Source of the DNA: Enterobacteria phage RB18
DNA: 64,000 nucleotides
Direction: 5' to 3' (one strand)
Sequence record: NC_054906.1
The notes beneath the pieces were generated by a model. The model saw only the letters and a program-made list of their open reading frames with translations, did no database searches and was not told the origin of the DNA. This document shows, piece after piece, positions 17,020-24,467 of this stretch (positions within the stretch are counted from its first letter, which is position 1; each line of letters starts with the position of its first letter). A program made the position numbers and the translations under genes.

Positions 17020-17049
17020 ACTATAACACAATATGAGGGACTTGTAAAC
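17020..17049 (-). promoter_or_regulatory. T4-type early promoter with conserved leader
   Basis: Minus strand GTTTACA, 17 nt, TATAGT; roughly 55-nt block nearly identical to 32145-32188. Confidence 0.55.
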
Positions 17050-19106
17050 TACATTTTGAACTTTTTAGACATTCCGTTGATGTTAACCAAAGAAGCTAAG
17101 ATTTGAGAAACTTCGTTTTCCTCTTCTTTTGATTCTTCTACAAGGAATTGATTAAATCCAGCCATTGGACGAACTTCTCCGGTTTCCATTAGATAGTCAC
17201 CATCATATACTGATTCTTCTAATTGTTCAGAAGGAGGAACGATTGTACCTTCGATTAGATACTTGTTATAAGCAGTTTCTTTCATAAAGTAAGTACTTAC
17301 TTTATTAATCTTCAGTAAAATTCCACGCGGTAGAATAACTTCAGCTTCTGATGGAAATCCTGTTAAATGACCTGGAACGATAACTTTGATTCGCTCAGCT
17401 CCTTTAATTACCATACCCACGCTAGTTTCAGCATCTTCATTAGCATATGTAGAATGACTACCCATATGCATCAAATCTTCTGCATCAACAGAACCTTCTC
17501 CTTCACCAGAAAATACTGCGCCGGAATCATCTAGAGCCATATAGTTTTTACCATGCTCACCGAAGATATTTGGTTTAAGTGATGTCGATACGAAGTTCTT
17601 GAAATAGAACATTTTGTTTTCAATGTTATGACGCAAAGTTTTAAAGGTAACTTCTTGTCCACGATAAAGCGTAGTTCCTGGAGGAAGAACTGAACCTTTA
17701 GCGAATGCAGAATCCAACGTCTCGATGTGCTTAATAGCTCGTTCCATATATTCTTCACGGGTAGAATCTGGTTTACCCAAAAGGAACGAGTTCATTTCAA
17801 CATATGAATCTGCACAATAATCTTCAATTACATCAGATTCAGCTTGAGTTAATCCTTTTGGAGTTACTTCGGTGCTTGCGTATTCATATGCCTGAGCAGC
17901 AGATTCATTAATCAATTTATAAATGCCATTCATGACAAATTGAATAATAGCTGTCTTTTCATCTGGCGTAGCTTTAGAACCTTTAACCAAATCATTGATA
18001 ATTTTCTTAATAACATCAAAGCTATTAGAAATATTAATATCAGCAAGATCGCTTAAAATTTTATCAGTTTTATAATCAAAGAATTCTTTATTCTTTAAAT
18101 ATTCTTGAGAACCTTGATATGTTATATCGCTCTGCAACTTGATGGATGGATCACGTAAACGTGCATGGGCTAATGCAATATGATTTCGGAAGTTTTCTAG
18201 TTCATAATCGCTAGATTTAAAACGAGAAGCACTCCTCATACCACCGATAGCTCCTTTGTTGAAGTTTGAACCAATCTGAATAACGCCAGAGTTCATTGGT
18301 CCTTCTGCTTTATATACCGGAACTTTGGATTCAAACTCTTGATATTTCTTAGCAGCGAAGCTATCACCCTGAAGTGAAGCATCAACAGTAGAATATTGAG
18401 CTTGTGCTGCTAATCGACGACTAATTTTAGTTTTCTGAATAACAGCTTGGTCAGTGCGCTTATCATTTTCTAAAGCAATAGAAGCAGCAACTGCGACAGC
18501 TTTAGGAACAGCATTACCTGTTTTAACGTCTACATAAACATCACCAACCTTTGATTCAACTTTTGTGAATAACTCAGCTGAAATAGGAGGTACACCTGGA
18601 ATGTCTTCTAAATTGGCATTTTTACGGTAAACCATAATATATGCATATTTCTTATCATAGTCCCAGATTTCCTTTAAAAGAACATATCGGCCTGCTCCTT
18701 TAGTACGTACTAAACGGTCAGCAATAACTTGCATTTGACGAGCAGCGCCATTTGTTTTACTCTTTAGTACGCGGAATAAGCATGCATCAATTTTATACTG
18801 TTTCATTGTTTGAAGAGCAGTATCAAAAACAGCATTAATGACGCCAATTGGATTTCCACCCAAGTTTTTAAGCTTAACTAATGATAGTTTCTCATTAACA
18901 CCTATCATTACGATATGCATCATTTTGTCGCCTGGCTTAACGTTTTTATTCGTATCACCGCCAGAGGTGTATGTACAAAATCTAAATCCGGGGAGAACGC
19001 TTTCTTCACCGGCTTGAATAGCAAAAATTTGTGGTATTTTATGCTTAGGATTTAAGTTAACAACCGGCGCCGAAGCGCCGTCAAATAATTCTGTAATAAG
19101 TTCCAT
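17049..19106 (-). CDS. Alt-like mono-ADP-ribosyltransferase, second paralog (685 aa)
   Basis: N-terminal ~230 aa near-identical to neighbouring Alt; FVSTSL and EAEVILPRG ART motifs. Confidence 0.75.
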   Translation of the reverse strand: MELITELFDGASAPVVNLNPKHKIPQIFAIQAGEESVLPGFRFCTYTSGGDTNKNVKPGDKMMHIVMIGVNEKLSLVKLKNLGGNPIGVINAVFDTALQTMKQYKIDACLFRVLKSKTNGAARQMQVIADRLVRTKGAGRYVLLKEIWDYDKKYAYIMVYRKNANLEDIPGVPPISAELFTKVESKVGDVYVDVKTGNAVPKAVAVAASIALENDKRTDQAVIQKTKISRRLAAQAQYSTVDASLQGDSFAAKKYQEFESKVPVYKAEGPMNSGVIQIGSNFNKGAIGGMRSASRFKSSDYELENFRNHIALAHARLRDPSIKLQSDITYQGSQEYLKNKEFFDYKTDKILSDLADINISNSFDVIKKIINDLVKGSKATPDEKTAIIQFVMNGIYKLINESAAQAYEYASTEVTPKGLTQAESDVIEDYCADSYVEMNSFLLGKPDSTREEYMERAIKHIETLDSAFAKGSVLPPGTTLYRGQEVTFKTLRHNIENKMFYFKNFVSTSLKPNIFGEHGKNYMALDDSGAVFSGEGEGSVDAEDLMHMGSHSTYANEDAETSVGMVIKGAERIKVIVPGHLTGFPSEAEVILPRGILLKINKVSTYFMKETAYNKYLIEGTIVPPSEQLEESVYDGDYLMETGEVRPMAGFNQFLVEESKEEENEVSQILASLVNINGMSKKFKM

Positions 19107-19109
19107 GAT

Positions 19110-21206
19110 TTATCCTTGAACGAACTTGTAAGGCATGTTTGTAATATCTATGCAAGACGCAATAATTCCAAGAGATGATTCTACTTTCTGTTTAACATTT
19201 GATGAAACAAATGATGCAAAGTCAACTCTGTCTTCTATTTCAATATCACCTGTCATTGCAACCAATTCACCAGTTTCCATTAAATGGTCTCCGTCATAGA
19301 TTACCGATTCGGTGAGTTCTTCGGTGGTCATAACTTCAGCTTGAATGAGTTTTGTATTATTAGACGTGGTTCCGTCATTATTAGAAGCATCAGTTATTTT
19401 ATTAACTTTGACCATCAATCCGCGCGGTAGAATAACTTCAGCTTCTGTTGCTATTCCGAGATTTCCTGGATATACAACATTAACTTTATGAGCTCCATCA
19501 ATTGCCCATCCTATTTGAACTTTAACGTATTCAGGATTTTCTTTATACGCTCTTATTTCGCTTGGATTAATAGTTATTCCTTCTTCATTTTTATCAACTG
19601 TCAATTCATTACGAGCTTCTGGTTCTAAAAGACCAATACCAGCATGTGTAATTCCAAAACGTCCAAAAATGATAGGAGTTAAAGAAGTAGATACAAAATT
19701 TCTGAAATAGAACACTTTATTTTTAACTAGTGCTTCGTATATAGGAGCAGTCATACTTTGAGCACGATAAACTGTGATGCCTTCCGGTATGCGGTCACCA
19801 TTTTCAAAAGCTGAATCTAAGTTATTTATAGCAGATTCAATTTCTTTTTCACTCATTACATCATATCGTTCTGGATTGTAACGACCTAAAAGAAGATTAT
19901 TGATGTCAGTATATCCTGAACCGCAATATTCTCTAATGCCACGCTTTTGTGATGGAGTATATTTAGAACCATCGCGGGCAATAGTAATATCAATCATTGG
20001 ACCAGCACCAATTCCAGAAAAACTGTAAATCATTCGTTTGAGGAATTTAGTTTTTGCTGCGTTCCAGGAATTTTTAGTTATTTCTTCCCAGACTTCATCT
20101 GGTTGTCCTTTACGATTTTTATTATGATTAGCAAGCCATTTATCTTTATAATCTTCAAAGAATTGATTTACAGCTGCTGCGTATTTCTCTAAACATTTTA
20201 TTGAAGTAGTTGGTTCATTTTTAATTGCATTAAAAATTACTTCTTTAATTTTTTCTGAAACTTCACCGACTTGACTCATTGGAAAGAATTTATAATCATA
20301 GTGAAGTTCATCTGCCGTTCCTTCAGCAATAATTTTTGCTGCCTTTGTTTTAGAAGCTAATGAATTAATTCCAATTTTCATTTCTTCTGCTTCGGGAATT
20401 AAAGGTGCAGTAGCTGGTTTATTAAAATTAGCTGCTGTAGATTCATACTTCTGGAATAATTCACTTTCAAATCTAGAAGATTCCAATGACTGACTTTGTG
20501 CAATTGCTCTACGGGAAATTTTAACTTTAACGATTACAGCTTGGTCAGAACGTTTATCATTTTCTTGCGCAATAGATGCTGCAATTGCCTCATTTTTAGT
20601 TACTTGGGCTCCAGTATCTTTATTGATATAAACATCACCGACTTTCGATTCAACTTTAGTAAAGAGCTCGGTACTAATTTCCGGAACTCCTGGAATGTCT
20701 TCTAGTGATACATTTTTGCGATGTATAAGAATATATGCATACTTTTTATCGTAATCCCAGAGTTCCTTAAGAAGGACGTATCTACCACCTGAACGACTAC
20801 GGATAAGTCTATCAGCAATAACTTGAATTTGTCGAGCTTGGCCAGCAGTTTTAGACTTAAGAATACGAAGCATACAAGCATCAATTTTATATTGACGCAT
20901 TGTTTGCATTGCAACAGTAAAAACTGAATTGATATAATTAATCGGGCTTGGACCAAGACCTTTTAATTTGGCAATTGAACCTTTAGCAGTTAATGTAAAA
21001 GGAACAATATGCATCATTTTATCGCCCATCTTTAAATCGCGATTAGTATCACCTCCAGATGTATAGGTACATAAACGAAAGCCTGGTTGTTCAATTGCAT
21101 CATCAACATGAACTGAAAAAATTTGTGGTATTTTCTTCTTTGGATTTAAGTTTGTAATCGGAAGAGTAGTATCTTCGTCAAATAATTCTGTAATAAGTTC
21201 CATCAT
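19110..21206 (-). CDS. alt: Alt ADP-ribosyltransferase (capsid-packaged, 698 aa)
   Basis: FVSTSL (STS) and EAEVILPRG (ExE) motifs; late promoter upstream; T4 alt position next to ligase. Confidence 0.8.
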   Translation of the reverse strand: MMELITELFDEDTTLPITNLNPKKKIPQIFSVHVDDAIEQPGFRLCTYTSGGDTNRDLKMGDKMMHIVPFTLTAKGSIAKLKGLGPSPINYINSVFTVAMQTMRQYKIDACMLRILKSKTAGQARQIQVIADRLIRSRSGGRYVLLKELWDYDKKYAYILIHRKNVSLEDIPGVPEISTELFTKVESKVGDVYINKDTGAQVTKNEAIAASIAQENDKRSDQAVIVKVKISRRAIAQSQSLESSRFESELFQKYESTAANFNKPATAPLIPEAEEMKIGINSLASKTKAAKIIAEGTADELHYDYKFFPMSQVGEVSEKIKEVIFNAIKNEPTTSIKCLEKYAAAVNQFFEDYKDKWLANHNKNRKGQPDEVWEEITKNSWNAAKTKFLKRMIYSFSGIGAGPMIDITIARDGSKYTPSQKRGIREYCGSGYTDINNLLLGRYNPERYDVMSEKEIESAINNLDSAFENGDRIPEGITVYRAQSMTAPIYEALVKNKVFYFRNFVSTSLTPIIFGRFGITHAGIGLLEPEARNELTVDKNEEGITINPSEIRAYKENPEYVKVQIGWAIDGAHKVNVVYPGNLGIATEAEVILPRGLMVKVNKITDASNNDGTTSNNTKLIQAEVMTTEELTESVIYDGDHLMETGELVAMTGDIEIEDRVDFASFVSSNVKQKVESSLGIIASCIDITNMPYKFVQG

Positions 21207-22904: not shown

Positions 22905-23170
22905 TGTTCATCCTTTAGAGTTTGGTTTACAGCTCTATTATAAATCAATTCATCATTAAGCTCAGTCAAAGACCTGTGGTACGTGGTTCTAACTTTATTT
23001 CCTTGCATCCAGTGCTTGACGTAAATGAAACCTTGCTCTACACATTTTTTAAAAATTCGTTCGTCTTTTTGAGCTCGGAATTCTGGATTGCATCTAAAAA
23101 ATTGATTTACGTGACCGTAATCACGTGTAGTATTACCTTCATTTTCATAAATAGTGTGAACGACAAACAT
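22901..23170 (-). CDS. Hypothetical protein (30.1 position)
   Basis: 89 aa ORF. Confidence 0.5.
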   Translation of the reverse strand: MFVVHTIYENEGNTTRDYGHVNQFFRCNPEFRAQKDERIFKKCVEQGFIYVKHWMQGNKVRTTYHRSLTELNDELIYNRAVNQTLKDEQ

Positions 23171-24006
23171 TAGAATGCTCCTTGGAAAATATTATCACCA
23201 CTAGTAGGTCTATTATACAAATACTCTATGCCACCAGGTTTAATATAGTTCCATGTCTGAAACGGATGTGTCTGATATGGATGATATAGATTATAAGGAT
23301 TAAATCCAGGAGTTCTCCAGGTAGTGTTCCAAGGAAAAGAATCATTTTTAATCATCTTTTCAATTACATCTTTTATAACTTTTTCACTATCAAAACTTTC
23401 TTTATTTTCCTTCGATGGAAAAAGCTTATTCTCTACATCATTCCATGTATAAACTCGCTGAGCGGTTTTTGGAATACTGTCACGCTCCCCTCGAGCCATC
23501 CAATAAACAGGAACATTTAATATTTCACTCGCGTGATCGCAATGGTGAGCGAGATCGTCAATATAACAAATTACGTTATATTTCTCTTTTGCCTTTTTGA
23601 ACAACTCTTCTTTTGAAGAATCATGACCACACATCAATACTTCTGAGAAGGCACCAGGAAAAAGAGCATTCAAATTAAATTGACGATTCAGCAGAGCGTC
23701 AATAGAATCACCCAATGCTGTAACAGCTACAAAATTATAATCTTCTTTTAATTTGTTAATTACACACAGGGCATCTTTATATGGAGACAAGTAACGAATA
23801 AAATCTGAACGATTATACTTTTCGATTAATTTAACACCGAGTTCTTCATCGCAATTAAAGAGCTTACCAGGAGAAATAAATTTTTCGTCCTGAATCATTT
23901 TTAAAATATGTTCCAACGGAAGATTATATTTTTGGGCAAAATAAGGAAGGCCCGATTGCCAGCTTAAACATACCCCGTCAATATCAGTCAAAATAGTAGG
24001 CTTCAT
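23170..24006 (-). CDS. HAD-like phosphatase / nucleotidase-like protein (30.2 position)
   Basis: N-terminal LTDIDGV DxDG motif typical of HAD superfamily. Confidence 0.5.
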   Translation of the reverse strand: MKPTILTDIDGVCLSWQSGLPYFAQKYNLPLEHILKMIQDEKFISPGKLFNCDEELGVKLIEKYNRSDFIRYLSPYKDALCVINKLKEDYNFVAVTALGDSIDALLNRQFNLNALFPGAFSEVLMCGHDSSKEELFKKAKEKYNVICYIDDLAHHCDHASEILNVPVYWMARGERDSIPKTAQRVYTWNDVENKLFPSKENKESFDSEKVIKDVIEKMIKNDSFPWNTTWRTPGFNPYNLYHPYQTHPFQTWNYIKPGGIEYLYNRPTSGDNIFQGAF

Positions 24007-24467
24007 AGAGAGTCTCTTAATAGGTTTAACACATCAATAAATTCAGCTTCGGTTAGTATTGTATCATCTTTTGTTAGACCGCTGGCCATGCTGTGCTTCA
24101 AAATTTTTCCTTTAGAGGCTTGTAAGGCATCACGAAACCCCTTGTTTTGAATCGCTGCTTCAAAATATGCATTTGTGTACAACTCTTTCCACGCTGGTGA
24201 GTATCTTGAAAACGGAACTCCAAGCCAGAAGAGGGTCCCACGGTCCTGAGCTCTAGCATAAGACCTTCCAGCTTGTTGGGCGGCAAGCCCGGATAACCCA
24301 AATATACGTCTTTGCTGCTCAACATTTTTCACCTTGCATCCTTGGAGGAATCCTTCGAGACCTCCAAATTGAATACCATCCATGACGAAAGGCCATTGGG
24401 CGAAATTACTTAATGCGCATGATGGCCATCTAAAATTGCTTCTAATCTCTAACTCAGACATTTTCAA
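24003..24467 (-). CDS. NADAR (YbiA-like) domain protein (30.3 position)
   Basis: LSNFAQWPFVMDGIQFGGLEGFLQGCKV resembles the YbiA/NADAR core motif. Confidence 0.55.
   Translation of the reverse strand: MKMSELEIRSNFRWPSCALSNFAQWPFVMDGIQFGGLEGFLQGCKVKNVEQQRRIFGLSGLAAQQAGRSYARAQDRGTLFWLGVPFSRYSPAWKELYTNAYFEAAIQNKGFRDALQASKGKILKHSMASGLTKDDTILTEAEFIDVLNLLRDSL

Follow-up and report, generated by a model that had tools for sequence, protein, structure and literature searches.

What does the short reading frame between genes 30.4 and 30.2 of Enterobacteria phage RB18 encode, and which host defense, if any, would its product oppose? The window analyzed here is a 64,000-nucleotide stretch of this phage (NC_054906.1). 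A preliminary description, made from the sequence alone, had proposed that a 154-aa open reading frame (ORF) in it encodes a NADAR (YbiA-like) protein, plausibly a counter-defense against DarTG-like systems. We are highly confident that the gene is adfN (gene 30.3 of phage T4) and that it encodes a NADAR anti-DarTG1 enzyme acting as T4 AdfN does. The gene, its fold, its mechanism, and its biological role are all already known, and a sequence-only reading of a short motif recovered a real counter-defense gene.

An Uninterrupted Reading Frame with an ATG Start

The 154-aa ORF of the preliminary description is real. At 24003-24467, the minus strand is open without interruption and gives 154 aa when read from a TTG; the translation includes both of the strings quoted there, LSNFAQWPFVMDGIQFGGLEGFLQGCKV and GLAAQQAGR. 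We divide this stretch as follows:

24003-24461, minus strand: adfN (gene 30.3) coding sequence, predicted NADAR-fold DNA ADP-ribosylglycohydrolase, 152 aa plus stop (ORF, PF08010, identity to T4, T4 and RB51 annotation, NADAR fold)
24462-24467, minus strand: two extra codons, TTG AAA, taken in by the preliminary description; part of the 3' end of gene 30.4 (ATG/30.4-stop overlap, T4 and RB51 annotation)

Translation of adfN almost certainly starts at the ATG at 24461, six bases in from the TTG at 24467, because this ATG and the stop codon with which gene 30.4 ends just upstream overlap (aATGtcTGA; stop 24454-24456), because the 459-nt 30.3 coding sequence annotated in T4 and RB51 matches, and because the published residue numbering (E36, K43) is reproduced. 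We therefore rejected the TTG start, and the two extra codons are probably not translated.

The 152-aa product is identical to T4 gp30.3 (NP_049816) at 150 of 152 positions, with V120I and I124M as the sole differences. At the DNA level, 22 of the 459 positions differ from T4; 20 of these changes are synonymous and only 2 are non-synonymous, hence the frame is under strong purifying selection. Together with a full-length match to PF08010 (E=5e-70), this ratio places the ORF well beyond chance.

An internal ORF annotated in T4, 30.3' (75 aa; 24098-24325, minus strand, in another frame within 30.3), is open in RB18 as well. Its changes are 12 non-synonymous to 1 synonymous when compared to T4, and 12 to 2 when compared to RB51; read in the 30.3 frame, nearly all of them are synonymous. 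The ratio against T4 argues against constraint, and we rejected 30.3' as a real overlapping gene. It looks like an unconstrained ORF.

A T4-Type Gene Neighborhood with Two ADP-Ribosyltransferase Genes

Matches to the 2.4-kb region surrounding the ORF came from 677 phage records, nearly all of them Tequatrovirus or other T-even phages (best match, Escherichia phage JLBYU22 at 97.7%). On this similarity, we assign the window to Tequatrovirus, i.e., to a T4-like phage. Locally, the genes follow the T4 order: alt.-2, alt, alt.1, 30 (ligase), 30.1, 30.2, 30.3, 30.4 through 30.9, rIII, and 31. Gene 30.3 occupies its T4-type site between 30.4 and 30.2, with rIII/31 upstream of it and ligase and alt downstream, and a T4-like relative with 57% identity (L012) has the same order around it. 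Three of the neighbors are considered below:

17049-19106, minus strand: alt.-2, Alt-type ADP-ribosyltransferase, 685 aa (PF03496)
19110-21206, minus strand: alt, Alt-type ADP-ribosyltransferase, 698 aa (PF03496)
23170-24006, minus strand: gene 30.2, HAD-fold hydrolase immediately downstream of adfN, with an ATGA overlap (HAD motifs, model, PDB matches)

The Alt transferases that the preliminary description placed a few kb away are these tandem paralogs, which both carry PF03496 and together span 17049-21206, on the same strand as adfN and 2.8-7 kb from it. In RB51, alt.-2 is annotated only as hypothetical. That NADARs of T4-like phages are early genes alongside ADP-ribosyltransferases (ARTs) was already noted (Iyer et al., 2022). 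This arrangement and the proximity of the two PF03496 genes would suit a writer-eraser pair, in which AdfN erases ADP-ribosylation made by the phage's own Alt, its alt.-2 paralog, and ModA/ModB. We consider such a pairing exceedingly improbable. The known targets of Alt and Mod are protein arginines. NADARs, in contrast, act on guanine-ADP-ribose (PMC11543638). Moreover, the phage can do without adfN on hosts that lack DarTG1 (bioRxiv 10.1101/2025.11.20.689424), and its distant homologs have no ART neighbor.

Profile and Fold Comparisons Support a NADAR Assignment

Against Pfam, the adfN protein returned only PF08010 (Phage_30_3; E=5e-70, 234 bits versus a cut-off of 36, profile positions 1-138 of 138), with no match to PF08719 (NADAR) at E<=0.1. 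NCBIfam and PADLOC scans of the protein gave no match, and a phmmer search of the PDB with the single adfN sequence found only 3rjz at E=0.66, a chance match. Relatives score 15.6-32.3 bits against PF08719, under its gathering threshold of 35.1 bits (P0083: 32.3 bits, E=1.5e-7). Since Pfam gives the phage branch a family of its own (PF08010), the PF08719 miss does not speak against membership of the NADAR superfamily. These plain library scans left membership unsettled, and profile-profile and fold comparisons were therefore needed.

Several metagenomic homologs at about 40% identity are labelled "YbiA (DUF1768 family)" by JGI, and the PF08719 scores close to the threshold, such as that of P0083, come from these homologs. 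A profile built from 52 family members found E. coli YbiA as its top match when searched against the PDB with hmmsearch (E=0.003), and hhalign aligned the same 52-member profile with E. coli YbiA at 93.7% probability (E=1.9e-7). An AlphaFold2 model made on the family alignment was confident (pLDDT 92.4, pTM 0.88). With this model, the only Foldseek matches above a probability of 0.08 were three solved NADARs, namely YbiA (2b3w), Phytophthora NADAR with ADP-ribose (8bau), and Geobacter lovleyi NADAR (8bat).

The fold, the profile alignment with YbiA, and the catalytic residues thus support membership of the NADAR superfamily. This bears out the identity claimed in the preliminary description, whose rendering of the YbiA core was also accurate (E. 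coli YbiA reads FSNFAAWPIKVDGKTWPTSEHYFQAQKF). It had put forward a Pfam search and a structural comparison with YbiA as ways to check the claim, and had named the lack of a significant profile hit to NADAR, or of the conserved catalytic residues, as what would refute it. Read literally, the first refuting outcome did occur in the plain Pfam scan, which found no PF08719 match; the profile-profile alignment with YbiA and the structural comparison, which returned 2b3w, 8bau, and 8bat, nonetheless agree on a NADAR, and E36, K43, and H123 are all in place.

Catalytic Residues Place the Protein in the Phage Branch of NADARs

The active-site residues and the C-terminal helix lie as follows in the coding sequence:

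24354-24356, minus strand: codon of catalytic Glu36 (GAA), equivalent to YbiA E48 and PnNADAR E43; invariant in 52 homologs, aligned to YbiA SEHYF
24333-24335, minus strand: codon of catalytic Lys43 (AAG), equivalent to YbiA K55; at least 90% conserved in 52 homologs, aligned to YbiA AQKF
24093-24095, minus strand: codon of His123 (CAC) in the last beta-strand; invariant in 52 homologs, paired with YbiA E125
24006-24050, minus strand: intact C-terminal alpha-helix, residues 138-152 (model helix 138-151; full-length identity to T4)

E36 and K43 are the Glu and Lys of the E..FQ..K motif. The pairing of H123 with YbiA E125 is a one-residue extension of the alignment, the hhalign match stopping at K122 versus YbiA V124. 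The last-strand residue sets the NADAR subfamily: Glu in YbiA, Asp in the DarT1-associated BC4488/DarG1 proteins, and His in phage gp30.3-type proteins (PMC11125620, PMC11543638). Since this residue is a histidine here, the adfN protein falls in the phage branch of the superfamily.

E. coli YbiA (2b3w) and Phytophthora NADAR (8bau) are about 18-19% identical to the adfN protein and have a last-strand Glu in place of its His; YbiA, in addition, comes from a housekeeping gene of the LexA regulon and is tied to riboflavin intermediates, whereas adfN is a phage counter-defense gene. DarG1 (BC4488 family; Geobacter lovleyi NADAR 8bat and E. coli C7 NADAR) is encoded beside darT, whereas adfN is an orphan: its neighbors are 30.4 and the HAD-fold 30.2, no DarT1 gene adjoins it, and PADLOC returned no match for 30.3 or 30.2. 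DarG1 also has an N-terminal extension, whereas the adfN protein has only about 12 residues before the conserved core, and DarG1 has a catalytic Asp where the adfN protein has His (criteria from PMC11543638 and PMC11825919). AdfN works like DarG1, yet it is not a component of a toxin-antitoxin system.

In the published view, His-type NADARs cluster mainly in the T4 superfamily. We also observed His-type PF08010 NADARs of 35-45% identity outside T4-like phages, on metagenomic contigs of 18-424 kb (L003-L010 and L014). These contigs are large and phage-like, with dense small ORFs, and genes near their NADARs include ones for NUDIX, Thg1, AAA ATPase, PRPP synthetase, GGDEF, SprT-like, and HD_4 proteins.

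T4 AdfN Removes ADP-Ribose from Guanine in DarT1-Modified DNA

The bioinformatic surveys of de Souza and Aravind, 2012 (as relayed in PMC11543638), and Iyer, 2022, counted T4 gp30.3 among the phage NADARs. The protein was renamed AdfN by Johannesman et al. (Nat Commun 2025, PMC11825919; preprint July 2024), and in 2024-2025 it was established as the main anti-DarTG1 factor that T-even phages possess. In that work, the DarTG1 resistance of T2 and T4 was mapped to gene 30.3, which is necessary and sufficient for it: T2 and T4 no longer plaque on DarTG1 hosts when adfN is deleted. E36A and K43A mutants are impaired. Purified T4 AdfN strips ADP-ribose from DarT1-modified DNA, E36A fails to do so, and AdfN neither binds DarT1 nor counters DarTG2 (all PMC11825919). 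Consistent results came from an in vitro study in 2024, in which T4 gp30.3 hydrolyzed guanosine-ADP-ribose but not thymidine-ADP-ribose (PMC11125620), and, independently, from a transposon screen in 2025, in which 30.3/adfN insertions were lost specifically on DarTG1 hosts (bioRxiv 10.1101/2025.11.20.689424).

The construct given in Methods 4.2 of PMC11125620 is "E. coli T4 phage NADAR (gp30.3; residues 1-208)", yet T4 gp30.3 has 152 aa. The discrepancy could come from a tag, from another phage protein, or from a misprint.

These experiments bear on whether the main substrate might instead be a small molecule, either a host immune-signaling ADP-ribose derivative or, as for YbiA, a reactive riboflavin intermediate. 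YbiA is annotated as an N-glycosidase, and the NUDIX and PRPP-synthetase genes near distant His-type homologs would fit such a role. However, T4 AdfN takes ADP-ribose off DNA in vitro, and phages that lose it fail to grow specifically on DarTG1 hosts (PMC11825919, PMC11125620), whereas no small-molecule phenotype is reported in the literature. We therefore regard a small-molecule substrate as extremely unlikely.

For the DNA-directed enzyme, we are highly confident of the following sequence of events. AdfN is made early in infection as a 152-aa single-domain NADAR enzyme. When the infected host carries DarTG1, the DarT1 toxin ADP-ribosylates guanine in phage DNA and so blocks replication; AdfN hydrolyzes the guanine-ADP-ribose N-glycosidic bond via Glu36, Lys43, and His123, and replicable DNA is restored. 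AdfN is thus an orphan, phage-borne analog of the DarG1 antitoxin that does not bind DarT1, and it leaves DarTG2 (thymidine-ADP-ribose) uncountered. The suggestion that the gene counters DarTG-like systems accordingly holds for DarTG1 (guanine), as shown for the T4 protein, and fails for DarTG2 (thymidine).

Two further anti-DarTG factors are known in T4, and their folds are unrelated to that of AdfN. AdfM (Tk.4, a macrodomain) is likewise an orphan antitoxin-like eraser, but it counters DarTG2 (thymidine). AdfA (gp61.2) acts through binding to DarT1 rather than through catalysis. Neither gene is found within the annotated part of the window (about 14-27 kb).

Gene 30.2 and the Requirement for a T-Even Factor

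T4 AdfN cannot replace DarG1 in uninfected cells: uninfected E. coli is not rescued from DarT1, and T5 and Bas25 are rescued only weakly (PMC11825919, PMC11125620). Full action is confined to T-even infection, and the authors postulate an additional T-even factor (PMC11825919). The picture of a free-standing eraser is incomplete because, on these results, such a factor is apparently needed.

The translationally coupled gene 30.2 is a candidate by position. The preliminary description had called it HAD-like, and gp30.2 indeed adopts a HAD fold and carries all four motifs: D8 and D10 (D8-x-D10), K132, D150, and D151 are invariant, T96 is close to invariant, and the motifs are kept across Straboviridae. 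The structural model is confident for residues 1-220. Foldseek returned 107 PDB matches at E<=0.001; the best 50 of the 107 are all HAD-family proteins, and the best-superposing among the matches listed are 5'(3')-deoxyribonucleotidases. The top sequence-profile match, 2jao (E=0.022), is also a 5'(3')-deoxyribonucleotidase. Beyond the modeled core lies a disordered C-terminal tail of ~55 residues, in which Trp, Tyr, Pro, and Asn abound; this tail is variable or absent in relatives. gp30.2 is a predicted HAD-fold hydrolase nearest to 5'(3')-deoxyribonucleotidases, although it is usually annotated as hypothetical.

As a potentiating factor, gp30.2 might recruit or stabilize AdfN or process the released product. 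The 30.3-30.2 adjacency is kept across T4-like phages, including the 57%-identical relative. Beyond them, we compared gp30.2 by BLASTP with the flanking genes of distant His-type NADARs in three contigs (L003, L007, and L014), with no match. An all-against-all BLASTP of the distant NADAR flanks versus every ORF of the window returned the NADAR itself and two short marginal matches, which we regard as chance. Hence, we rejected as unsupported a NADAR-HAD pair conserved beyond T4-like phages, as the flanks in these three contigs share nothing with gp30.2. The HIDEN-SEQ text on the DarTG1 screen makes no mention of 30.2. Since the pairing is absent in distant His-type NADAR phages and 30.2 goes unmentioned in that text, we consider it very unlikely that gp30.2 is the T-even factor.

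An Intact Allele in RB18 and Broken Alleles in Related Phages

In RB69, the allele is non-functional, a frameshift having deleted the last 15 residues, and RB69 is rescued by ectopic adfN (PMC11825919). The RB18 gene is collinear with T4 to the final residue (152 aa), with no RB69-type frameshift, and it keeps the C-terminal helix required for full activity. RB18 is a different Tequatrovirus isolate, and its protein resembles T4 AdfN in length, in its position between 30.4 and 30.2, in E36/K43/H123, and in the intact C-terminal helix; at 99% identity, it differs by V120I and I124M. Both changes are conservative; in the wider family (52 homologs), position 124 is commonly a Met.

Could RB18 nevertheless carry a decayed, non-functional copy like that of RB69? 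Disrupted alleles are common in related phages and the two substitutions flank H123, but the copy runs to full length, its C-terminal helix is intact, no catalytic residue is missing, Met124 is common in the family, and the 20:2 ratio of synonymous to non-synonymous changes indicates purifying selection. We judge decay extremely unlikely. [quoted passage not shown] With high confidence, we infer that it shares the function of T4 AdfN, taking enzymatic activity and phenotype from the 99%-identical T4 protein. RB18, with this intact adfN, should resist DarTG1.

Broken adfN alleles occur in several T4-like phages and contigs (P0007, P0013-P0017, and P0053 among the relatives). Their lesions include the following. 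First, there are frameshifts that enter or leave the 30.3' frame (vB_Eco_NR1 and P0015). Second, deletions fuse the N termini of gp30.7 or gp30.8 to the C terminus of AdfN (P0014 and vB_EcoM-RPN226). Third, N- or C-terminal truncations occur in SV76, UGJNEcP4, and P0013. Because all of these alleles lack E36/K43 or H123, the phages that carry them are predicted from sequence to be DarTG1-sensitive, like RB69.
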